Shown here piece by piece: positions 31,274-60,267 of a DNA stretch of 64,000 bases (the first letter of the stretch is position 1; each line of letters starts with the position of its first letter). The stretch is taken from IMG/VR virus record IMGVR_UViG_3300005573_001500; one strand, given 5' to 3'. The DNA is from a virus. The notes beneath the pieces were generated by a model that saw nothing but the letters and a program-made list of their open reading frames with translations, ran no database searches and was not told the origin of the DNA. A program made the position numbers and the translations under genes.

Positions 31274-31525
31274 TTATTCAAAATTGAACTCTATTTCGCC
31301 TGTTATCGTCTCAGTTCTACCATCTTTAGTTATCCATATCCTTGAAATGTTTACAGAACTTGTTATTTTTGAAAGGTTCACTTCTTTATGCGTGTTAAAA
31401 ATGATGTGTATAACGTTTTCTGCAAAAGAGTGCACTTTCACATCTTCAATGTTCATATTTTTAAGTAAATTGACAACTGTTGGAATCTGTTTTTCATCTC
31501 TTAAAATCATCTCATACCTAGGCAA
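31274..31525 (-). CDS. Small alpha/beta protein ending in EIEFNFE
   Basis: 83 aa; acidic-aromatic tail. Confidence 0.6.
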   Translation of the reverse strand: MPRYEMILRDEKQIPTVVNLLKNMNIEDVKVHSFAENVIHIIFNTHKEVNLSKITSSVNISRIWITKDGRTETITGEIEFNFE

Positions 31526-32327: not shown

Positions 32328-34721
32328 TTATTCAAAGTTGAAATGTATTGTGTCATCTTCAAACTCTAATTTTATCTCTTCATCTATATAATCTGTTAAT
32401 GTTCTTTCAGCTCCAATATTCATTTTCAACGGTATTGTCACTTGACTAACAAGGCTATCTAAAAGTTCAATGTACTTTTCAACATTAACATTATTCTTAT
32501 CTTTGACAACCTCATAAGGTTTTGCAGTATAACGTTTATCATTAACTAAAATTTTATGTATATAATCTCCAGCTTTTTTGTGTACGCCTAATTCACGGTA
32601 TTGATGTGCAACTTCATAGTCTTGACCTTCACCGTCATCTTTTTTAAGTCTTCTTTTTATTATTAGTTCTTCAAGTTTAAAGCTTCTCATTCTAAGCTGT
32701 TTATGACTCTCATGTAATATCTTACGTATTTCGTCTTTAGCACGTTCAAGTTCTACAGTATTATTGACATTTTTTAATGTTTCAGCTATTTGAATAAACA
32801 CTTTCTTGAAAAACACGCACACGTCCTTCTTTTTACCTACAAGACCTACAATATCACATTTGTTTTCTTTTGTTATTCCAAGATAGTTCTTCTTTTTCCA
32901 TAAAATACATAGCTTATAATTTTTCTGGACATCCAGCTTAATCTTCAACTGATTATACACATCATCTATAAACTTTTGAATGTTCTCAGATTTATCAGTT
33001 TTAATGAACAAGCTGTCAGTATCTCCGTATAGTACTTTTATGTTGTGTTTTTCAGCTATTTTCATCATTTGCCTAAAAGAGTATCTAGCACATGCTGTTA
33101 TTGTTGAAGCTACTGCCGGTATAATGTTCTTGTAGATTCCATAACTACTATTACAATGTAGTTTAAGAGTTTCTATAAAACTTGGGTCTGCATTATTATG
33201 TTTCATTTCTATTCTTAAATCTTTTAAGCATCCTATTGTCATACTGAATAACGATTTGTTTTTAGTGCAAATGTGAAACGAATGTTCAGGAGCAATATTT
33301 GTTTTGCATTCTTTATGTGGGCATGCTAGTGTTTCTGGGCCAATATTGAATTTGTCTATTACGTTAGGATACATTGACGGAACATCTAACACGTAAACGT
33401 TGAAATATACGTTTGGTTCGGGTTCTAATGTTATTGCTCCTTCGTATGAGTTTTCTTTTTTATTTGATTTTTTGATTGGTAATAATGTTTTTGGTGTTAA
33501 GTCGTTTTTGTTTGGTATCAAAGTGTTGAACAATCTGTATATCCAGTTCATTTGGTATTTTGCTATTATTTTTGTTAAGTTTATTCTATAAATGTCTTGA
33601 AGAGAAATGTTTGTTATTCTTGAAAACAGAAAGAGTAGTTTGAATATTTTGTAGTTGTCTTTCTGTGCTATTTTATATACTATTTCTGAATCTTTCAAAC
33701 ATCTTTTCTTAAGTTCTATGTCCGTACAGAAGTTAAGGTTAGGCATAGGTTCTTTTGTTTCGTTTAGTAGTACTCGTGCTATTTCTTCTAGTGTGTTATT
33801 TTCTGCTTCTTCTAACTGTTTGAATGCTGGTCTAAACAGGGAATGCGTTAGTATTTTGTAAATGTCTAAGTGTATGCTGTTTTTCAAATTGCATATTGTT
33901 TGTGTTTCTGTTTTTTCTATTTTTATTGGGGATTCTACTTGTAATCTTTTTGCTCTATTATGTAGATATTGTAGGTCAAAGTTGTCTGAGTTAAATCCTA
34001 AAACGAAAGGGTAACTCTCGATAATACTGAATGCTTTTCTCAATAATTCTTTTTCGTCTTTGAAGTATTCTATTTCTTTATCGTTTGCTGATTGTACAAT
34101 TAAGTGAGAATCTTTAAGTATAAACACTTTCCTATAATCGTCTGAACAAAAAGAACATGCTACTATTGGTTGTTCAGCTTTCTCTACGTCTGGATATTCG
34201 TTTTGAAGTGTTCTCACTTCTATGTCTAATGCTACGTATTTAACTTTAGGAACATACAAGTTGAAAACTGTTTTGTACAACTGAAATAGTGAGTTTCTGT
34301 CGTTAGGCTTTAACGTTAAACTGTGTAAACCATTAGGGTATTGATAGCCGAATATTAATCTGTTATCGTATGCGAAACAGTATGGGTATTTAATGTCGTC
34401 TTCATATGAGCTTCTAAGTTTTGTTCTTAATCCAGTTTTGCTTCTTTTATCATACACTATGCTTGGGTTTGAAACAGATATTTTATATAAACTTTCATAT
34501 TTATCGTGAATAATGTTATACTTTGTTATTGGTTCTATTTTAAGTATGCCGAATGTTTGCGGTACAATTTCATCTCTTGTTAAAAGGTATGGATTGTGTT
34601 CTTGAGTGTTTAGTTCTTTTTCTATTTCTTTTTTTGATTTTCTAGTTATAGTATGTGTGATGTCATCATATAACCAGAATGTTAAGTCATTATCGTAACT
34701 GTAATTTACGAGAAAAAGCAT
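32328..34721 (-). CDS. polB: Family B DNA polymerase, RNA-primed type, resembling the archaeal PolB1 clade
   Basis: ExoI ALDIE, ExoII GFNSDNFD, DVPSMYP, KLHCNSSYG, YGDTDS, KKNY; ETLACPHKECK..APEHSFHICTK insert and YEDDIKY..FAYD N-terminus resemble PolB1. Confidence 0.95.
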   Translation of the reverse strand: MLFLVNYSYDNDLTFWLYDDITHTITRKSKKEIEKELNTQEHNPYLLTRDEIVPQTFGILKIEPITKYNIIHDKYESLYKISVSNPSIVYDKRSKTGLRTKLRSSYEDDIKYPYCFAYDNRLIFGYQYPNGLHSLTLKPNDRNSLFQLYKTVFNLYVPKVKYVALDIEVRTLQNEYPDVEKAEQPIVACSFCSDDYRKVFILKDSHLIVQSANDKEIEYFKDEKELLRKAFSIIESYPFVLGFNSDNFDLQYLHNRAKRLQVESPIKIEKTETQTICNLKNSIHLDIYKILTHSLFRPAFKQLEEAENNTLEEIARVLLNETKEPMPNLNFCTDIELKKRCLKDSEIVYKIAQKDNYKIFKLLFLFSRITNISLQDIYRINLTKIIAKYQMNWIYRLFNTLIPNKNDLTPKTLLPIKKSNKKENSYEGAITLEPEPNVYFNVYVLDVPSMYPNVIDKFNIGPETLACPHKECKTNIAPEHSFHICTKNKSLFSMTIGCLKDLRIEMKHNNADPSFIETLKLHCNSSYGIYKNIIPAVASTITACARYSFRQMMKIAEKHNIKVLYGDTDSLFIKTDKSENIQKFIDDVYNQLKIKLDVQKNYKLCILWKKKNYLGITKENKCDIVGLVGKKKDVCVFFKKVFIQIAETLKNVNNTVELERAKDEIRKILHESHKQLRMRSFKLEELIIKRRLKKDDGEGQDYEVAHQYRELGVHKKAGDYIHKILVNDKRYTAKPYEVVKDKNNVNVEKYIELLDSLVSQVTIPLKMNIGAERTLTDYIDEEIKLEFEDDTIHFNFE

Positions 34722-38238: not shown

Positions 38239-38410
38239 CTCTTTTTGTCGGTTATAACATACTCACAACAACTATATAAATCTTTCTATAACTAGAACAA
38301 ACTTGACAATAATTAAAATATTCTTCATAACTATTCGGAAATTGAAAACTATATCATCAAGTGATAAGTTGGTTAACTTGTTTGAAAATTTCACGATATG
38401 ACATAATTAT

Positions 38411-38584
38411 CTACTCAAATTCAAACTTTATTTCTTCCTCTTCCTCGATAAAATCAAATTTTATTTCCTTAGTTTTCTCTTTTGCCTCAAGTATTTCTTT
38501 AGGCATAACACCGTCTTGTTTAATATGTCGTGTTATTGAAAATCCACAAGTGCACTTAGCACTTTCATGTGTTTCATTAATCAT
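38411..38584 (-). CDS. Small CxC protein with doubled acidic tail (EIKFDF...EEIKFEFE)
   Basis: ATGA-coupled start at 38584, 57 aa. Confidence 0.65.
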   Translation of the reverse strand: MINETHESAKCTCGFSITRHIKQDGVMPKEILEAKEKTKEIKFDFIEEEEEIKFEFE

Positions 38585-38718
38585 GTCAAAAACAATCTGG
38601 CTATTATGTCTTCTTTGTCTATGTAGTTCCACTTTTTAGTGCCTCTTGTATTCATTTTGAATCCGCTTGGAGTTAATAGCACATCAAATATTTTATCTTT
38701 GAAGACTATACTGAACAT
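38581..38718 (-). CDS. Micro-protein, 45 aa; not in ORF track
   Basis: MFSIVFKDKIFDVLLTPSGFKMNTRGTKKW... Confidence 0.5.
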   Translation of the reverse strand: MFSIVFKDKIFDVLLTPSGFKMNTRGTKKWNYIDKEDIIARLFLT

Positions 38719-38720
38719 TT

Positions 38721-39785
38721 TTATTCACCTTTATAGTATTTGCATTTTTGTTTTATGCACCATCCTAGTTGTTGTATTGTTTTGCATCTGTATGGTTTTA
38801 TGAATTTTGTTCTTTTGATTATGTCGTTTACTTGGTATAAGCTTCTTTCCATTTTGAAGTCTGACTGATTACTGAAGAGTTTAGCTATTTCTATTGGGTC
38901 TCTGTAGCCGCTTGCTAATGCTTCGTTTACTGTTGCTATTCTTTGTTGATGTGGCATGTCTTTTGTGTTTTTTAATGCATGTTCAAAGCATGGTCTTAAT
39001 TTCTTGTTTCTTATGCTGTGATGTTCTTCTATTGGTATATCGTTTATGTTTAAGCCTTCAACTAAGCTTTTACCTATTTCTAGAGCATAATCTATAAACT
39101 TGTTGAATCCTAAACATACTTGTTCTTTTTCTACTGTTGAAAGGTTTTCTCCTTTCCATATTTGTTCTACTTGTTTAAAAGTTAAAGCTTTAAAGTCTTT
39201 GTCATAGAATATTTGCAGTTGTTTTGTTTCTAAATGGAAAGTGTATGGACATCTTATTTTGTGTCTATTTACATACCAGAGTCCAGAGTCTATTTCACAT
39301 TTGTTTTTAACGTCTGTACAAGCATATATGAATTCTTTGATGTATTGTGCTGTTTTTCTTTCGTACAGTTGATTCCAGTCTTCTCTTAAATAATGAGTGT
39401 ATGATGGAAGCCAAATGTGCATTCTAGTGTCTATTAAATATGTTATGTTGAATTCTTCTAATAGTTTTGTTATTTGTTTGCATATTTGTTTTCTCTCTGT
39501 TAAACTGCATTTGTCTATGTCTATTATGAAGTCCCAATCGTAGAAACTGAAGGATTTTGCATCGTTAAATTTTTGTACAGAGAATGTTAGTTCGAAAGTG
39601 TTTAACGGTTTGTATTCTGCTTTACTTATAATGTCGTATGCTGAGTTTATGAAGAATGGTTTAACGTATTTGTCGTTTTCATGTTTTATTTGCCATTCTC
39701 TATTGTAACCGTCAAACAGTTGTATAAGTCTGTCAAGATATTTGAGTAATGGTGTTTTATATTCAGATAAAATGCTTCTTAGCAT
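38721..39785 (-). CDS. Archaeo-eukaryotic primase: PriS-like catalytic domain fused to PriL-like Fe-S domain
   Basis: WDFIIDID, MHIW, KIRCPYTFHLET; C-terminal LRPC...PHQQR...QSDF...YQV...PYRCKTIQQLGWCIKQKC; start reassigned to MLRSIL (TAATG overlap, GGGTG RBS). Confidence 0.8.
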   Translation of the reverse strand: MLRSILSEYKTPLLKYLDRLIQLFDGYNREWQIKHENDKYVKPFFINSAYDIISKAEYKPLNTFELTFSVQKFNDAKSFSFYDWDFIIDIDKCSLTERKQICKQITKLLEEFNITYLIDTRMHIWLPSYTHYLREDWNQLYERKTAQYIKEFIYACTDVKNKCEIDSGLWYVNRHKIRCPYTFHLETKQLQIFYDKDFKALTFKQVEQIWKGENLSTVEKEQVCLGFNKFIDYALEIGKSLVEGLNINDIPIEEHHSIRNKKLRPCFEHALKNTKDMPHQQRIATVNEALASGYRDPIEIAKLFSNQSDFKMERSLYQVNDIIKRTKFIKPYRCKTIQQLGWCIKQKCKYYKGE

Positions 39786-39958
39786 TAGTGACACCCGAAC
39801 CTTACTATATGCTCGTAACACTGAAGACATATCACTATAAAATGTCTTCCAGAATAAACTTCTATTCCCCAATCAGTATCCCATTTAGCTGTGACAGTGT
39901 GTTCTGATGGAATAATTTTCTCTTTTATTGTTTTTCCGCAAAGATAACATTTTAGCAA
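39785..39958 (-). CDS. Zinc-finger micro-protein, 57 aa; not in ORF track
   Basis: TTG start after GAGGT; CYLCG...ICLQC. Confidence 0.65.
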   Translation of the reverse strand: MLKCYLCGKTIKEKIIPSEHTVTAKWDTDWGIEVYSGRHFIVICLQCYEHIVRFGCH

Positions 39959-39993: not shown

Positions 39994-40708
39994 CTACTCG
40001 AAATCAAATTTTATTTCTTCTTGTTCTTCAACAAAGTTAAACTGAATTTCCTCTTTTTTTTTCTATCAATTCAATCTCTTTAACCATAAACGATTGAAGA
40101 TTTATAAAAGACGGTTTTTCTGCGAAAAGCTTTGACAAGAAAAGTTTAAAGTTTATAATGTTGAGTTCTAGAATTTCAAAAGTTGATAAGCCTGGATATA
40201 AGTTTGAAATGGTTTGATGCTTATTCCAATCTTGCCATATTTCTCCGTGATTTAAAGTTAAAAAGGGAATTGTAGTGTCAAAACCGTTAAAATAGTAAAG
40301 GACACGTGGAGATATTCCTTCTCTTACTCCGAGAAACCATCTTTTCTTTCCCTCTGTTAACTTCAGAAAAGTCTGCAAATCATAGTCACGCCGGTAGTAA
40401 GGCATCCCGACCCATTCAAAATCGCTAAAATCCTCCTTTACACTATGTAGAGGAAAAATCCAATTAATGTCTGGATATTGATTTTTGAATTTTCGCATTT
40501 CCGTATAACATAAATCTGGAGCAACTGCAAAGTGAATTAGACCGCAACCATATCTACGAAGTTCTCTCTCCAACCATTTTATATCAGGCTTTCCCTTTTT
40601 TTCTATAAATTTATTATCTAAAAACTGTGGGTATGTTAGAAATCCATGTCTATTGACTATTTTACGTATTTCCCGTAAAGTTTCCATTGTGGGAAGAGCT
40701 ACAATCAT
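39994..40708 (-). CDS. TGT/DpdA-like TIM-barrel protein (DUF6610-like); apparent +1 shift in A9 near the 3' end
   Basis: FLDNKF, FAVAPD, IFPLH, WVGMP, WFLG, GFDTT, HGEIW follow TGT-fold motif order; removing one A at 40054-40062 gives 237 aa ending EEIQFNFVEEQEEIKFDFE. Confidence 0.55.
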
Positions 40709-40731
40709 TTCTGTAACCTCCTTTTACTAAC

Positions 40732-41838
40732 TTATAACCTCTTTTTCTTAAATCTGTCTTCACATATACTAAAATATGAACACGTTTCAACCGTACACAA
40801 AGAACCTCTCGGTCTACCAATAGGCATCTTCATGTTCTTTATGAAATCGCATAGTCTATCACATACTTGTACAAATCCTTTAGAATCACATAGTACTGGT
40901 AACACTTGAAAGTATCTGCTTAACTCTATTTCACCTATCACGTTAACGTTTACTCCATAAAACTGTTCAAGCAAATACTTATAACCACCTAACTGTAATT
41001 GAGTGTCATAAAAAGAGCCTTGTTCTGTTTCAGATAACAATAATGTTCTAGTTGTTTTGACATCTCTAATCACAAAAGTGTTATCGTTTAATCTGTAAAG
41101 TTTGTCTATGTGTCCTACAAGAAGCAAATTCACATCATAGTTACTGTAATAGCCTACTGTTTTCAGTTCTGTCCATTTTCTACTAACTATTTTATGATAT
41201 TCGCCTTCATGTTCAATATTGTGGCATATACGATAAGCATTTACTTCAGCAAACTCTTCTAAAACTGTGTTAAACATTCTTTCTAATGTAGACTGTATTA
41301 AATCTTCAGGTACAGATTCTTCAACTGTTTCCAACGCTTTAGTTAAAAGTTCATTTTCTATTATTTTTAGTATTTCTTGTTGTATTAAATCTCTGTCTGG
41401 ATATAGTTCTTTGAATCTTTTATAGTTGTTTTTGTTGTCTAAATATTCTGTTAGTAAATTGTCAATAGCATGTGTTAATGAACCTTCAAGCATAAAACTG
41501 TTTGTCACTTGTGGAACCCCATAAACGTTGTCGAGGTACCATGCTATGTCACAGTAGTTGAAAGAACATATGCTTGTTACCCTTTGTAGTATATACGGCG
41601 TTTTCAGTTTACATTTGTTGCAGACTTCTCTTTTTATAAACTCTAACTGTTCAGAGCTTAAATGAGTTTGATTAACTGCACATACATAACACATGTCAGA
41701 TTTAACATTATTAGGGTACATTCTGTTCTGTGATATAGCCCTTTTAATGCTTACTTCAACGATATTAAACAAGTAGTCTGGAAGCTCAACTGAAACAGAA
41801 CAACCATTCTGAAGTTTCAACTTTAAAACTTTCAACAT
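40732..41838 (-). CDS. Cas4-like/AddB-like PD-(D/E)XK nuclease with Fe-S cysteines
   Basis: YCDIAWY...EGSLTH...GHIDKL...RDVKT...QLQLGGY...C....CSYFSIC. Confidence 0.8.
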   Translation of the reverse strand: MLKVLKLKLQNGCSVSVELPDYLFNIVEVSIKRAISQNRMYPNNVKSDMCYVCAVNQTHLSSEQLEFIKREVCNKCKLKTPYILQRVTSICSFNYCDIAWYLDNVYGVPQVTNSFMLEGSLTHAIDNLLTEYLDNKNNYKRFKELYPDRDLIQQEILKIIENELLTKALETVEESVPEDLIQSTLERMFNTVLEEFAEVNAYRICHNIEHEGEYHKIVSRKWTELKTVGYYSNYDVNLLLVGHIDKLYRLNDNTFVIRDVKTTRTLLLSETEQGSFYDTQLQLGGYKYLLEQFYGVNVNVIGEIELSRYFQVLPVLCDSKGFVQVCDRLCDFIKNMKMPIGRPRGSLCTVETCSYFSICEDRFKKKRL

Positions 41839-47110: not shown

Positions 47111-48172
47111 TTACTTCAATTTGTTTTTAAGATAAACTTCACTTATGAAGTTGATTCCATATTTTGAGAACGCTTCTAATTCAACTTTCTTTTTGAGTTT
47201 GTCCCATAGTCTTAGCTGTTCCATTATGAATGGGTCGTTTTTGCATCTTACGTCTTTCATTAAGTCGTATAGTCTTTTTGTGTCTTTGTCTGTGAATTTT
47301 CCTTTTTTAGGGTCTACTGGTAGTTTATAGTCTATTATGTCTTGTGGATATATGCCTATCCATTTTGCATTCATAACATTTAATCCTTTAACATGTGCGA
47401 GAGAGATACTGTTATACTTAATTGTTAAAAATATTGACAGTCCGTAGGGGTCAGAATCCGTTAACACAAATACTGGTAATTTGAACTGTTCACTTAACCT
47501 TCTAACTAGTATTCTACAGTTTCTTGGCGGTTGTCCTTCACTGAAAACTAATAAAGCATTATATTTCTTATAAACACCGTCTTCTACGAATCTTCTGAAG
47601 ACTGCCTGTTTTTCAGCTATTATTATTTTGTCTGCATTTACTTCTAAGAATTCTGTGTTACTTGTTAGTTCTGGTCCTATTGCTAAACCGTCAGGATGTT
47701 CGTTTAAACTGTATATTTTGTCTGTGTGTGGAATCCAAGGTCTAGGTTGAACATATCTGAATTTTGCATCTCCGAATATTACTGCTCGTTCTTTCGGGTA
47801 AATGTTGAAGTTTTCTCTTGTTAATCCTGTTAATGCTTCTAAGTCTTCTATTATACTGTTACTTTCATGTTGTTCTTGAAAAGCAATATCTTCAAAACCC
47901 ATACTAGTGTAGTAGATGTCTCTTAAAGTTGTTGTTCTATTTGTTGACAGTAATTCTTTATTAACATACCAGATTAGCCAACATAATTGTGCAAAAGGTT
48001 TAACTGTTGAAAGTTTACCGGCACTTCTAACAAACTTGTGAGAGCCTAATGTTAAGCCTTCTTCCGAAAGTTTAACGTTTTTAGCTGTTCTATCTGGAAC
48101 AAACAGCTTAGGAATTTCTTTTCTACTTAATTGTTCATAAACAGATTCTGCAACTTTAACAATACTATTCAT
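47111..48172 (-). CDS. top6A: DNA topoisomerase VI subunit A / Spo11 homolog
   Basis: TLRDIYY catalytic Tyr, EQHESNSIIEDLE, IIAEKQAVF and LTDSDPYG Toprim motifs, KVELEAF. Confidence 0.95.
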   Translation of the reverse strand: MNSIVKVAESVYEQLSRKEIPKLFVPDRTAKNVKLSEEGLTLGSHKFVRSAGKLSTVKPFAQLCWLIWYVNKELLSTNRTTTLRDIYYTSMGFEDIAFQEQHESNSIIEDLEALTGLTRENFNIYPKERAVIFGDAKFRYVQPRPWIPHTDKIYSLNEHPDGLAIGPELTSNTEFLEVNADKIIIAEKQAVFRRFVEDGVYKKYNALLVFSEGQPPRNCRILVRRLSEQFKLPVFVLTDSDPYGLSIFLTIKYNSISLAHVKGLNVMNAKWIGIYPQDIIDYKLPVDPKKGKFTDKDTKRLYDLMKDVRCKNDPFIMEQLRLWDKLKKKVELEAFSKYGINFISEVYLKNKLK

Positions 48173-48724: not shown

Positions 48725-49874
48725 TTATCCAGCAAATTTGTTGGCATAAACGCCCATTTTAACTAGTTGTGAATCAGCGTATTTAATTAATGACTTCCAG
48801 ACGCTTTTTTCAAGTCTGTTAAAGACAAAATCCCGAAACGTTCCCTCATTTATATGTTCTCTCATTTTCCATATTTCCGTCTGATAAACGTGAACGTTAT
48901 GGATGGCCCGGAGAAGTCTCGCATGCGGCGTTCTATCTGCGAATTTTGATAGAGAATTTCCGCGACAAGCAGGACAAGAGCATTCCAACAACTTTTTCTT
49001 TTCTTCTTCATTTAAAGTTTTACGTTTTTCTCTTTCTGAAATAAATCGGTCAGATACTCCAGGAAGTTGTATCACACCATAACCCGCTTTCTGAACCCAT
49101 CCAACGTAATCGAAACTATCTGCCCCGCAAAATGTTATTAGGTACGCCATGGTTCCACCGGTTCCAAATACATGCAAAAATGCATCAGGCAGTTTTTGCC
49201 GAATGTAGATCAACATATCTATAACCTTTTTCTTCCCCCCCAACCGTCCCAGAACCCTTCGATGTCATCAAAAGGGGGACTAGGCTTCCAACTCCAATAG
49301 CGGGTGGATCACAACCAAGAATTTCTCCGACTTTTTCCAACATATAATCAAGCGTTTCTCTGTCATATCCATGAATGACTGGCAATATACTTAACTTATC
49401 ATTTATAGTCAAGACTTCTTCCAAATTTTTAAGAGTTTTATTGATTCTTCTCTGGTTTGATGCTCTACTAGCTTGGGGGCTTAAGGGGAAATCTAATTGG
49501 ACCGCAATATCACATTCTATTTCTTGTTGAATTGAATAAACTTGATTAACCGTCAAACCGATTTCACGTTTTGACGTTTGGAAACCTCCGCTATCACATT
49601 TCAAGCGCATTTTGGTTGATAGATGTTTTACAAGTCTCTTTCTTTCACCATTCTTATCTTGATATAGTAGATCGTAAGCGTTAGCAAGAAAACATTCCAC
49701 ATTATTAACTGAAAGAACTGTATGCTGAAACTCATAATTTTCTATAACTGAAAGCCCGAACCATATCGCAGGAGTATTCACCTCTTTTTTCCAAGTCCTT
49801 AAAACACCTGTTCTAGCAAAACCATCTTGCGCGCGCTTCTCAAAGTTTAATCTAAGCTGATTAATCATTAACAC
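48725..49874 (-). pseudogene. tRNA-guanine transglycosylase-like (archaeosine TGT/DpdA-type) gene split by one extra G in a G7 run
   Basis: ARTGVL, DSGGFQ, QLDFP, PVIHG, GVGSLVP, HVFG, ADSFD, CSCPAC...HN; G7 to G6 at 49235-49241 gives one 382-aa ORF; no PUA domain. Confidence 0.85.
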
Positions 49875-55033: not shown

Positions 55034-55822
55034 TTGGTGTTTATGTTTCAATGGCCTGAGGAAATTCCTTACAAGGAGTACATTAGGCTCTATATTTTAG
55101 AGAAAACACTTAGACAGTTTGTCGTTTTTCAACTGACAAAAATAAGTGAAAAATGGTGGAGACGGAGAATACCCAATGACGTCTGGGATAAAGCTGAAAA
55201 ACGAAAGATGGAAGAGGAACGTAGATTGACATACTCACTTGACTTGCATCCAATCTGGTACGTTGACTTCGGTGATTATGTGAAAATTATCACACGAGAA
55301 GATAACTGGAAAGACATTTTTAAGGAAATTTTCATCAGCGAATGCCGATTTATGGCAGCTATGGAAATGCTTGAGCCAATACGAAATAAAATTGCGCATA
55401 TGCGACCGTTAAGTGTTAGAGAGAAGAAAAACTTAGATGCGTTAACTGAGGATCTCTTAATACCAATATGGAAAGTTTACAACACTATATACGTAGAAAA
55501 GGCTGAAAAGCTAACAAAAGAGAGCATGTGGAAAGAAGCAGAGCAAATTCTCAAGAAGGGATACGAAGAGACAAGAGGTGATCCATGGATAGCGTACAAA
55601 CTTGGAGAACTCTACATTCACGTGAATAAAATAGAAGAAGCTAGGCATTGGCTAAAGATTGCAATTAAGTATTTACCCCTCAATCGGTACAAGAGATTTG
55701 TTCTCCAAAAACTTCGTGAAATAAAAAACAAAACAAAATTAAAAATGAAAGTTTGCCCTCAATGCGGAAACAAAACGCAAGCAGAGCACAAGTTCTGCAG
55801 TATGTGCGGCTTCAAATTCTAG
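55034..55822 (+). CDS. Swt1-like HEPN domain protein with TPR-like repeat and zinc ribbon
   Basis: LEKTLRQFV...WW...YVDFGDYVKII...W..IF...IRNKIAH (Rx4H); CPQCG...CSMCG. Confidence 0.8.
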   Translation: MVFMFQWPEEIPYKEYIRLYILEKTLRQFVVFQLTKISEKWWRRRIPNDVWDKAEKRKMEEERRLTYSLDLHPIWYVDFGDYVKIITREDNWKDIFKEIFISECRFMAAMEMLEPIRNKIAHMRPLSVREKKNLDALTEDLLIPIWKVYNTIYVEKAEKLTKESMWKEAEQILKKGYEETRGDPWIAYKLGELYIHVNKIEEARHWLKIAIKYLPLNRYKRFVLQKLREIKNKTKLKMKVCPQCGNKTQAEHKFCSMCGFKF

Positions 55823-56867: not shown

Positions 56868-57812
56868 ATGAACGAAAATAAATTAAAAGAAAATGTAACG
56901 TTTGCAGCTATATACGCTAGAACATCATCCCCGAATCAGCGTTTTAACTACAGCATAAAAGAACAGGTTCATCAGTGCTGGAATTTCTGCCTTCATAGAG
57001 GCTGGGTTGTCAGATATGTGTTCATCGACGAGGCGCAAAGCGGCGGAACTGTTGAAAGGCCAAAGTTTCAGCTGATGTTGCAAAGGGCAAAAGAAGGCAG
57101 ATTCAACGTTATTGTGTTCTGGAAGCTTGACAGATTTTGCCGGTCGCTTGTGGATCTGGTCAATATTGAAAGGATGTTGAGGCAGTGGAATGTCGGGCTA
57201 TGTAGTGTAACGGAGTTTATTGACACAACAACACCTGTTGGACGCTTTAACTTCCGAAATCTAGCTTCTGTGGCTGAGCTTGAGCGAGAGATTATAGGCG
57301 AGAGGGCACGTCTCGGATTGCATGCACTTGCCCGCCAGGGTAAGTGGCCCAACCCTCATCCACCGCTTGGGTACGACAAACATGAAGATGGGCGTCTCGT
57401 GATAAACAGGGCAGAAGCTGAGCTCGTAAAGAAGATTTTCCAACTTTACCTCAAATACAAATCTATGAGCCATGTAGCTTACCTCTTGAATAAGGAAAGG
57501 GTTCAGACCAAGAGAGGCAGACGATGGAATGCCAGGGCCGTTAAAGACGTACTCGCTAACAAGTTGTATATAGGTGGGTTTGATGTTGCGGGCGCTAACA
57601 TCAGCATAGAAGAATATAGAATTATTGACGATAAAACATTCAATACCGCCCAAAAGCTGAGAGCCAGATTTATTTCTCAAAAGAGCAAGAGATCACCTAT
57701 GCAGCATGATAGAAAGCTGGAGCAAATTGAAAGGATCATTTCCAGATATTATGAGACGTTAAGAAAATACAATATAAAACTAAACTTCATGGAGGATTCA
57801 GCTGAATGGTAG
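56868..57812 (+). CDS. Serine recombinase (resolvase + Recombinase domain)
   Basis: IYARTSSPNQ, WKLDRFCRS, AELEREIIGER...G...A.QGKW, W....VKDVLANKLYIG. Confidence 0.92.
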   Translation: MNENKLKENVTFAAIYARTSSPNQRFNYSIKEQVHQCWNFCLHRGWVVRYVFIDEAQSGGTVERPKFQLMLQRAKEGRFNVIVFWKLDRFCRSLVDLVNIERMLRQWNVGLCSVTEFIDTTTPVGRFNFRNLASVAELEREIIGERARLGLHALARQGKWPNPHPPLGYDKHEDGRLVINRAEAELVKKIFQLYLKYKSMSHVAYLLNKERVQTKRGRRWNARAVKDVLANKLYIGGFDVAGANISIEEYRIIDDKTFNTAQKLRARFISQKSKRSPMQHDRKLEQIERIISRYYETLRKYNIKLNFMEDSAEW

Positions 57813-58645
57813 ATGATACTCTAACGGTCTTCAAGGTCAATTCATGTCCAGCGTGCAATTCCACAACGCTGGAGAATTTCATGAATAGGCAAGTAGTATG
57901 CTGTGATTGCGGCTTAGTAATAGATTCAGAAATTAGAGGAGACAATTATGTGAGGAGTACAGACGGATCGCGCCAGGCAACTGGTAAACGATTAACAGCT
58001 GTAGCCAATCAACATGAAAACGATTTTTCAGAGTGGCAAAAGCTCCTAAAAGTTTCAGATAGTACGGAAAGGAATGCTGCAATCATATTATATTACATTA
58101 CAAAAATCGTCAGAAAACTTCAACTTCCATTTTCTATTCTGGAGAAGTCCGTAAATATCTATAGGACTTTGATTGACAAGTGTAGCTTTAAGGGCATGAG
58201 GCTTAGGGCTGCAAGCGCCGCAATAGTTTATGCATCATGTAAAATCGCAGAAATACCATGTAGTATACGAGAAGTCGCGAGTATCTTAAATGAAGACTCC
58301 CGAAAAGTTTTTCGTATCTATTCGACTATAGCTGAGCACCTAGAAGTCCCACCCACTCAGTCAAATATTAGCAAACTTCTACATCAAATATGCGAAGTAA
58401 TCAATGTCAAAGAGTTGCCTCGGAATATTGCCAACAAAATTATAGATATTATAGGGAAAACTAGAATAACACAAGGGAAAAACCCATATAGCTGCGTTGC
58501 GGCAGCTATTTATATTTCATCAATTCTTGTAGGAAGAAAGAAAACTCAAAGGGAACTATCTAAAATTACTCATGTGACTGAAGCGTCCATTAGAACAAGA
58601 TACAAAGAGATAATTCAGAATTTACTTTTCACGATCTCCATTTAA
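57806..58645 (+). CDS. tfb: Transcription initiation factor IIB paralog
   Basis: CPAC...VCCDCGLVI zinc ribbon; DSTERN; two cyclin repeats (KGMR..AAIVY; QGKNP..VAAAIY...TQREL...VTEASIRTRYKE). Confidence 0.9.
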   Translation: MVDDTLTVFKVNSCPACNSTTLENFMNRQVVCCDCGLVIDSEIRGDNYVRSTDGSRQATGKRLTAVANQHENDFSEWQKLLKVSDSTERNAAIILYYITKIVRKLQLPFSILEKSVNIYRTLIDKCSFKGMRLRAASAAIVYASCKIAEIPCSIREVASILNEDSRKVFRIYSTIAEHLEVPPTQSNISKLLHQICEVINVKELPRNIANKIIDIIGKTRITQGKNPYSCVAAAIYISSILVGRKKTQRELSKITHVTEASIRTRYKEIIQNLLFTISI

Positions 58646-58752
58646 CTTTCAATATGTTGGTGTTATTTATGAGAACTTTAGCAAGATTTCGCATTTTCAA
58701 CCGCTACGAGTATCTTCACTCTCATCTCAATTCCTTTCCGTTTAGTTTTATT

Positions 58753-60267
58753 TCACATGTAGCTTGATAAGATACGTTGAATTCCTTTTTCCTTGAATTT
58801 TGTCAGGATATAGTCAAGGTTATTGGTTGATCGTAGCGCTTTAATAAAAGTTTTCAGAGCTTCTTCCCGTTTGATAATCCACTCGGCGATACGTTCTAGC
58901 TCATCTCTCTTTATTAACCTACGTTGAACTCTATCTCTTTTGCAAATGTAAGATTGCCCATTTAATATCATAGCTTGCTTACAAATTGGACAATACGGGG
59001 CGACATTATCGAAACATTGAAGTATATCATATCCGAAAACTTCCACCATTTCATCTATAGGCTTTCTTTTACGTTTATATTCCTCTTTTTTACTTTGAAT
59101 GATTTCCTGAGCCTTCATGAATATTTCCATTGGGATGAAAGTGAGAGAAGGGTCTTCAACCTCCACGTTGCCAAACAGCTTTTCAACGTTTCGAGAACCA
59201 AACTTTGGCTTTCCTATGTATACAGGGTTCGTTAATATGTTAGCCACACGCTCAGGATTTAAAGGCCTAGGAAGTAAGTCTTTATACTTTGCGTTAATCA
59301 CCTCTGCCACCTTACTATACTCTTTACTTTCTAAAAATGATCTAAATAGGTCGGTAATTAGGGGTTCATATGTTGGTGTCTTCTTAATCCATAGACCACA
59401 TTTCTCATAACCAATGGGTATGGGCATGTTCCATCTGCGGTTCTTAAAGTTATGTATTTTTGAGCTAAGTGAGACATACGTGCGCCGTTTATTCTCTTCC
59501 TCAGCTTGATAGGCCTTGAGCGACGTTAACACTAGGTCATATAAACGTTTAACATCGATTTCTTCTGTTAACGTAATCGTCAATACGTTGTGAGCTCGCA
59601 ACTGCATTATAAAACCTAGTAGTTCAAAAGATGCTCTCCCTATACGGTCTACGTTGCGTATCAAAAACTCGCTAATTTCTCCCTTCTCTGCTAAATATAG
59701 AATGGCACCTAGCTTTTTACGATTAAAATTTTCACCACTTTTTGCCTCTACGAAAAGGTAAAGCGTACTTACACCTCTTCTCTTAGCCAACTCCACAAGT
59801 TCTTGCCTTTGAACTTGTAAGCTCTCTCCCTTGGAAACTTGTCTGGAGGTGCTAACTCTTGCATAACCCACAGCTTTTTTACCCGATCCACCCTCAAGAT
59901 TGATAATTTCATCGATCGGCAAAAGTATCCTTAAGGCAATTCCCCTAAGATTATCCTCACCTTGATCCCGCTCAGTGTTATCTGCTACCTCTTCAATAGC
60001 GCAAGAGTTGGGTTTCAAAATAAATTTATCGAGGGTGACTCCCAACAGAAATACCGGCACGTGTATGATTGGCATGTGGATTATATGCGAAATATATGAT
60101 TGGTATAAGCCTTCAAAAATCAGAAGTATGATTATGGGATATGTTTTGCGAAAAGATTTTATAAAAAATATGATGCGCTTAGCCAAGGCAGATCGCATCA
60201 TACAGAGTTCATAAATTTTGCGAAAAATTATAGTATCAAAGGCTAGTTTCATAATTTTACTTTTCAT
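58753..60267 (-). CDS. Large serine recombinase with N-terminal extension and zinc ribbon
   Basis: VGYARVSTSRQ, RNVDRIGR, YQAEEENKRR, NILTNPVYIG, CPIC...YIC; true start uncertain. Confidence 0.9.
   Translation of the reverse strand: MKSKIMKLAFDTIIFRKIYELCMMRSALAKRIIFFIKSFRKTYPIIILLIFEGLYQSYISHIIHMPIIHVPVFLLGVTLDKFILKPNSCAIEEVADNTERDQGEDNLRGIALRILLPIDEIINLEGGSGKKAVGYARVSTSRQVSKGESLQVQRQELVELAKRRGVSTLYLFVEAKSGENFNRKKLGAILYLAEKGEISEFLIRNVDRIGRASFELLGFIMQLRAHNVLTITLTEEIDVKRLYDLVLTSLKAYQAEEENKRRTYVSLSSKIHNFKNRRWNMPIPIGYEKCGLWIKKTPTYEPLITDLFRSFLESKEYSKVAEVINAKYKDLLPRPLNPERVANILTNPVYIGKPKFGSRNVEKLFGNVEVEDPSLTFIPMEIFMKAQEIIQSKKEEYKRKRKPIDEMVEVFGYDILQCFDNVAPYCPICKQAMILNGQSYICKRDRVQRRLIKRDELERIAEWIIKREEALKTFIKALRSTNNLDYILTKFKEKGIQRILSSYM

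Follow-up and report, generated by a model that had tools for sequence, protein, structure and literature searches.

The 64,000-nucleotide stretch of viral DNA analysed here (the window), part of an archaeal virus-like element, encodes a TIM-barrel protein of 223 aa, P0001, which is probably a minimal (~200-220 aa) DpdA4-related 7-deazaguanine transglycosylase. Its most likely substrate is the DNA of the element, and the base would normally come from a co-encoded importer of the QueT type. We identified the fold, a set of invariant residues, a link to the DpdA4 family, a recurrent linkage of the family with QueT genes, and a deletion that removed QueT from the lineage of the window.

Gene, frame and genomic surroundings

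The P0001 gene occupies 40037..40708 on the minus strand. Its translation contains both TGT-like strings that the initial annotation had noted, LDNKF at residues 30-34 and WFLG at residues 124-127, and the observation on this ORF is confirmed. The lower boundary given at that time, 39994, marks the stop of another frame, not of the 223-aa ORF. The P0001 gene is part of a long array in which replication and recombination genes share one strand; the array is AT-rich (~31% GC) and includes RecA-like ATPases and a family B DNA polymerase (PolB) at 32328..34721 on the minus strand (PF00136, E 4e-31; PF03104, E 2.7e-22) that ends in EEIKLEFEDDTIHFNFE before its stop codon. The gene had been placed between a primase and a Cas4-like nuclease. 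The nuclease was verified, as the upstream neighbour (40732..41838, minus strand) encodes a Cas4-like PD-(D/E)XK nuclease with a C-terminal Cys cluster (PF12705, E 1.3e-9). The primase stood only in part, because the downstream ORF (38721..39872, minus strand) resembles only the C-terminal domain of PriL; it hit NCBIfam PriL models at E 3.6e-7, far below their cut-offs, and gave no Pfam match. None of the window ORFs matched FolE, QueC, QueD, QueE or QueF of Halovirus HVTV-1 at E <= 1e-3, in agreement with the earlier statement that the window has no queC/D/E or folE gene. No tRNA genes were found in the window.

A canonical TGT-family gene (PF01702), which had been omitted from the initial annotation, was detected at 48725..49874 on the minus strand. 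A frameshift at a G7 run (near 49236-49242) divides it into ORFs of 229 and 172 aa. Its product is most like the ArcTGT catalytic domain, with a second half like ArcS, and is devoid of PUA and C-terminal domains. The nearest deposited viral relatives are the genes annotated as queuine tRNA-ribosyltransferase in STSV1 and STSV2. Together with P0001, this gene gives the window two different guanine-transglycosylase candidates, both frameshifted at a homopolymer. The window also contains a full-length Top6A/Spo11 gene at 47111-48172 on the minus strand (PF21180, E 3e-47); no recognisable Top6B adjoins it, and the neighbouring 490-aa and 129-aa ORFs gave no Pfam match. Two large serine recombinases with Resolvase and Recombinase domains flank a TFIIB-family gene (57806..58645) at 56868-60267, and a HEPN_Swt1-TPR-zinc-ribbon protein is encoded at 55034..55822. 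This higher-GC flank looks like another mobile or defence patch.

At an A9 homopolymer at 40054..40062 on the minus strand (T9 on the plus strand), the frame of the P0001 gene shifts and the protein ends in EKKRGNSV. The initial annotation ascribed to P0001 the same tail as PolB. The motif is indeed present after the A9 run, but in the window copy it is out of frame: the acidic-aromatic C-terminal tail common to PolB, KKEEIQFNFVEEQEEIKFDFE, is encoded at 39994..40059 (minus strand) up to the stop codon of the second frame. In P0002, the homologue on locus L012 that is described below, the tail is in frame and the run reads AAAAAACA. The closest copy of the tail is found in a small ORF at 38411..38632 (minus strand), which ends in KEIKFDFIEEEEEIKFEFE. 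The pattern [ILVM]x[FLYW]xF[ED]-stop terminates three in-frame ORFs (PolB, 38411..38632 and one ending at 31274) in addition to P0001 out of frame, whereas shuffled windows contained 0.3 such ORFs on average and at most 2. The A9 run recurs unchanged in L009 and L010, two contigs with 100% identity to the window, and in L011 (99.0% identity), which comes from a different sample, indicating that the run is not a one-off assembly error. Since all 25 SNPs of L011 fall in the primase-like gene, this locus is uninformative on selection on the P0001 gene.

The tail was absent from the family members other than P0001 and P0002, and its coding DNA (L012:1223-1301, which corresponds to 39994-40059 of the window) is ~76% identical over 79 nt to positions 38402-38480 of the window, at the end of the small ORF. 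This suggests that the tail is a recent lineage-specific add-on common to unrelated proteins of the element, and the likeness of the two DNA stretches suggests that it was transferred from gene to gene as a piece of DNA. The proteins that bear the tail probably share a binding partner; for the C-terminus of a PolB, a sliding clamp comes first to mind. No candidate for a clamp or another hub was identified in the window. The replication coupling of the base exchange that was proposed earlier is hypothetical, because its only basis is a tail that is unique in the family to this lineage and is out of frame here. Conceivably, slippage at the A8/A9 tract, either during replication in the population or during transcription of the A9 run, works as a switch that adds or removes the PolB-type tail, so that the enzyme would be tethered to the replisome hub of the polymerase for insertion at the fork or would be free to act after replication. 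We consider such phase-variable tethering doubtful, with a low probability.

Fold and family membership

An AlphaFold2 model of P0001, built on an alignment of 18 homologues, was a TIM barrel (pLDDT 87.1, pTM 0.82) with seven parallel strands, a hairpin, and two C-terminal helices after the barrel. When the model was searched against the PDB with Foldseek, the matches were nearly all bacterial TGT entries, at E about 8e-4. In a comparison with representative structures using VIA-align, ArcTGT (1iq8) came top with Z 12.8, followed by Cap10, Tgt, QTRT2, and bacterial DpdA (7ui4) with Z 11.0-11.5 and 194-217 residues aligned. Generic TIM barrels also reached Z 10-12, but with only ~150-166 residues aligned, and the TGT-family matches thus align 30-50 residues more than the generic barrels do. 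After re-ranking of the best 1000 chains from Foldseek, the top 50 rows were all TGT or ArcTGT (Z 12.2-12.8), with ~198 of the 223 P0001 residues aligned at an rmsd of 3.4. Among the predicted viral structures of BFVD, the list was led by two uncharacterised proteins, A0A0N9NY60 of Acidianus rod-shaped virus 2 (ARV2; E 2.3e-7) and ORF192 of Acidianus two-tailed virus (ATV; E 3.2e-7); the lower matches were phage queuine tRNA-ribosyltransferases and proteins of the haloarchaeal tailed virus HCTV-1 (R4THZ2), Cellulophaga phage phiST and Vibrio phage nt-1. The TIM barrel that had been proposed from the order of the motifs is thus borne out by the model. In the structure search against DpdA, TGT and DUF6610, TGT/ArcTGT were the best solved folds, DpdA 7ui4 gave Z 11.0, and DUF6610 clusters came first in the Atlas. 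We regard the fold and the placement of P0001 in the TGT superfamily as very likely to be correct.

P0001 itself matched no Pfam (E <= 0.1) or NCBIfam (0.01) model, including PF01702, TIGR00449, PF20314 and PF23859, and neither the single protein nor two profiles matched any PDB sequence. Of the PHROGs, only phrog_17844, of unknown function, was matched. An exhaustive phmmer search yielded 40 representative relatives, and none was found in the 185,579 species genomes scanned. PF01702 was not found on three family-bearing IMG/VR contigs, which are fragments. The relation to a described family emerged from PF20314 (DUF6610), which was matched by 4 of the 50 aligned relatives; P0039, which matched P0001 at E 4e-10 in phmmer, scored 27.1 bits against PF20314 at a cut-off of 27. 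DUF6610 was renamed DpdA4 by Hutinet et al., with HVTV1_69 of Halovirus HVTV-1 as type member; the DNA of HVTV-1 carries dPreQ1 at 30% of guanines, and DpdA4 activity could not be shown in E. coli (PMC10516641). In hhalign, the family profile matched an alignment of HVTV1_69 homologues, all labelled PF20314, with moderate strength (E 3e-5, probability 73%, 115 columns). D31, D65, H88, and G101 of P0001 were paired with D163, D190, H225, and G240 of the HVTV1_69 homologues. The alignment also pairs WxLG of the family with HxLG of DpdA4, which agrees with the earlier reading of WFLG as a substitution for HxxG, and ends before D144. Comparison of the family with the single HVTV1_69 sequence by hhalign gave no match. 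When the Atlas was searched by shape and by language-model features, DUF6610 clusters ranked first in both, and the language-model neighbours were all DUF6610; glycerophosphodiester phosphodiesterase clusters also appeared in the Atlas list.

Conservation was evaluated in 52 unique near-full-length members, including those of ATV and ARV2, with a median pI of ~9. D65, H88, Y109, W124, and D144 were present in all 52 and D31 in 51. In the model, the conserved residues are all located at the C-terminal ends of successive strands, which form the usual active face of TIM barrels. The Zn-binding CxCxxC...H subdomain of TGT was absent; P0001 has only two cysteines, C55 and C67, and since no cysteine is conserved in the family, there is no Zn site. 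The best local hhalign alignment with E. coli Tgt placed GFDTT against DMFDCV, with D144 opposite D264 and G127 opposite MGVG, although this match is weak (E 0.05) and not significant alone. We take D89 and D264 of E. coli Tgt to be the catalytic aspartates, D264 being the nucleophile, and D143 to be a substrate-binding residue. The DpdA4 alignment gave nothing useful against E. coli Tgt by hhalign. We propose D31, D65, H88, and D144 as candidate catalytic residues.

We placed the P0001 family in the TGT superfamily as a sister to DpdA4, outside PF20314 as now drawn. Both are viral, archaeal-lineage TGT-like TIM barrels with a common order of FxD, xxD, PH, G, xLG, and xD. DpdA4 proteins are 340-390 aa long, contain HxLG and come from haloviruses, whereas the members of the P0001 family have ~220 aa, contain WxLG and come from metagenomes of the hot-spring and sediment type and from crenarchaeal viruses. 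Furthermore, HVTV-1 has folE, queC, queD, queE, and queF beside DpdA4, whereas members of the P0001 family were never seen next to these genes and are paired with a QueT importer instead. Tgt and ArcTGT (PF01702; 1iq8 and Z. mobilis TGT) are the best solved folds and appear to have aspartates at equivalent strand ends. They are, however, only ~10-12% identical to P0001, which is devoid of the Zn site, the insertions, the PUA and C-terminal domains and an HMM match, and the substrate of both enzymes is tRNA. The likeness to bacterial DpdA (PF23859; 7ui4, Z 11.0 with 196 residues aligned) is structural only.

Two proteins of cultured crenarchaeal viruses belong to the same family, ATV ORF192 (Q3V4T8; hhalign probability 99.2%, E 1.4e-19) and ARV2 ALG96901 (98.1%, E 1.4e-13). 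Both have the invariant Asp, His, and Asp residues of the family, are on long branches of the tree and have no Pfam family. The ATV gene (L078:2429-3007) lies between a transposase and a ParB-like gene, and both this gene and that of ARV2 (L077:2483-3106) are annotated as hypothetical. No QueT annotation was found in the 2.5-kb flanks of these genes, and no function for ATV ORF192 was found in the open literature. A metagenomic protein of 242 aa, P0031, combines a partial N-terminus of an MT-A70 adenine methyltransferase (PF05063, E 2.5e-8) with the C-terminal half of the P0001 domain; the two parts may be truly fused, or gene calling may have run across two DNA-modification genes.

The QueT partner gene and its deletion

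P0002 (239 aa, 97% identical to P0001) is encoded on L012, whose DNA is 95.5% identical to the window. On L012, the Cas4-like gene and the enzyme gene are separated by a gene of 153 aa, which overlaps the start codon of the enzyme gene (ATGA). It encodes a full-length QueT protein (PF06177, E 1.9e-19, 70.8 bits vs a cut-off of 33.7). QueT/QrtT proteins are ECF S-components that import preQ0, preQ1, queuine, and queuosine (PMC11130926). The same QueT-enzyme arrangement was found for P0015, a homologue of 45% identity, and all ORFs of 61 further loci were scanned. QueT adjoins the homologue in 27 loci, being upstream in all but one of these (26/27), and the overlap is usually 1-4 nt. With their genes abutting or overlapping, QueT and the enzyme are probably co-translated. 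FolE, QueC, QueD, QueE, and QueF were found in none of the ~75 family loci, many of which are on short contigs. We read precursor salvage as the usual supply route of the family, and a 7-deazaguanine is likely to be the substrate.

Cas4/PD-(D/E)XK nucleases (in 5 other loci), N6/N4 DNA methylases, and Hjc resolvases also recur near family members; dpdB-like or dpdC-like genes were not among the recurrent neighbour families. A maximum-likelihood tree groups P0001 with the QueT-linked P0002 as its sister (support 100/100), inside a set of further QueT-linked genes; for nearly all close relatives of P0001, the enzyme gene adjoins one for the transporter. Another clade, of 29 rows, shows neither QueT nor any other deazaguanine-linked neighbour. 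In this clade, a PAPS-reductase-like PP-loop protein recurs, often encoded directly downstream of the enzyme gene (L003:5037-5948, L004:5113-6024, L007:10570-11328 and ~7 more); its match to PF01507 has an E of 3.6e-14 in L007 and is weak in L004. Since QueC is likewise a PP-loop enzyme, this neighbour may be another base-processing partner. Among 50,697 deposited records, a QueT-like gene was detected in only two, MT837821.1 (4319-4792) and MT836442.1 (4310-4756), with 34% identity and E of 6e-8 and 2e-7; these phage fragments derive from human faecal viromes, and neither is annotated.

Exactly 469 bp of L012 (nt 87-555), which carry QueT, have no counterpart in the window, and the flanks are 95.5-96.5% identical. 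The deletion junction is between 40725 and 40726. The last 17-20 nt of QueT are retained at 40709..40725 (minus strand), and this 3'-end remnant now serves as the spacer, with GGAGG, before the start codon of P0001. The absence of exactly 469 bp together with the retention of the last codons of QueT indicates that QueT was deleted in the lineage of the window. The proposal in the initial annotation that the enzyme uses a host precursor thus needs revision: the clade normally encodes its own importer, which this element has deleted. The window copy either relies on the 7-deazaguanine pool of the host or belongs to a module that is being lost.

Proposed reaction, alternatives and significance

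The reading of P0001 as a TGT-fold, DpdA-like enzyme is well supported by the structure, by the link to DUF6610/DpdA4 and, independently, by the occurrence of QueT beside the homologue in 27 loci. By analogy with TGT and DpdA, D144 in GFDTT would attack C1' of the target deoxyguanosine, and guanine would leave. A 7-deazaguanine of the preQ0 or preQ1 type would then be bound with the help of D31, D65, and H88 and be joined in place of guanine. In the clade of P0001, the base would be supplied by the QueT-type importer, with no biosynthesis genes alongside. The modified DNA of the element would then be less readily recognised by host nucleases.

We favour DNA as the target, with somewhat better than even confidence, over tRNA because P0001 has no tRNA-binding domains, its setting is one of viral replication genes, and DpdA provides a precedent; these are the only points that separate the two substrates. 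A transglycosylase acting on tRNA would re-tool host or viral translation with imported preQ0 or preQ1. In favour of such a function, the closest solved folds are those of tRNA enzymes, and bacterial QueT serves tRNA queuosine salvage (PMC11130926). However, P0001 has neither the PUA or C-terminal tRNA-binding domains nor the Zn subdomain, the window contains no tRNA genes, and the gene lies in a replication/recombination array while the family recurs beside nucleases, DNA methylases, and resolvases. Moreover, the viral TGT-like enzymes studied so far all act on DNA (PMC10516641), and an action of P0001 on tRNA is improbable. The TIM barrel might instead perform other chemistry on the imported compound, such as releasing or converting a queuosine-precursor nucleoside, in which case the likeness to TGT would be one of fold only. 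Such a function would fit the Z of 10-12 reached by generic TIM barrels, the glycerophosphodiester phosphodiesterase clusters in the Atlas list and the failure of P0001 to match PF01702 and PF20314. The TGT structures nevertheless align 30-50 more residues and fill the Foldseek list, the motif order is the same as in DpdA4, and the language-model neighbours are all DUF6610, which makes this explanation very improbable.

The deletion in the window raises the question of whether the gene still functions. If the deazaguanine module is being lost here, the remaining ORF would be a decaying remnant that modifies nothing. The 469-bp deletion that took QueT and left its last codons would then be one of several lesions, along with the 1-nt homopolymer change that truncates the protein and the homopolymer frameshift in the second TGT-family gene 8 kb away. 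On the other hand, the barrel is complete, with none of the invariant residues lost, and the same haplotype was found in at least two samples. The codon differences between P0001 and P0002 comprise 8 synonymous and 5 nonsynonymous changes. In addition, 29 homologues make up a clade that does without an adjacent QueT, and the tail lost by truncation is a recent add-on foreign to the rest of the family. We regard decay as an unlikely explanation and retain the reading of P0001 as a probable DpdA4-related transglycosylase.

DpdA enzymes are taken as a signature of viral 7-deazaguanine DNA. To our knowledge, no DpdA branch other than DpdA4, which was defined on haloviruses, is specific to archaeal viruses. 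Both DpdA4 and precursor-importing phages are already published. The compact subfamily, the membership of ATV and ARV2, the consistent QueT-enzyme pair, and the presence of QueT in archaeal virus-like elements were not found in the open literature or the deposited virus records that we searched. The nearest parallel is the preQ0 importer YhhQ/QPTR, which is present in phages alongside DpdA and does not correlate with any phage group (PMC6884629). In both cases, a virus with an insertase imports the precursor instead of making it; the transporter of the P0001 family differs in being QueT, an ECF S-component, and in being tightly and consistently coupled to the enzyme gene.

The P0001 family approximately halves the size of the DpdA4 enzyme and is missed by the Pfam models now in use. 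With it, the candidate modification reaches the cultured crenarchaeal viruses ATV and ARV2 and many uncultivated archaeal elements, and in the cultured members the prediction is open to a direct test by mass spectrometry. Owing to its small size, the enzyme is also an attractive minimal scaffold for studying DNA base exchange. The QueT-enzyme pair points to a two-gene module for import and insertion that needs no biosynthesis genes. If this is true, counts of queC/D/E would underestimate the viruses with deazaguanine DNA, and these viruses and their hosts would be rivals for the queuosine precursors in the environment.
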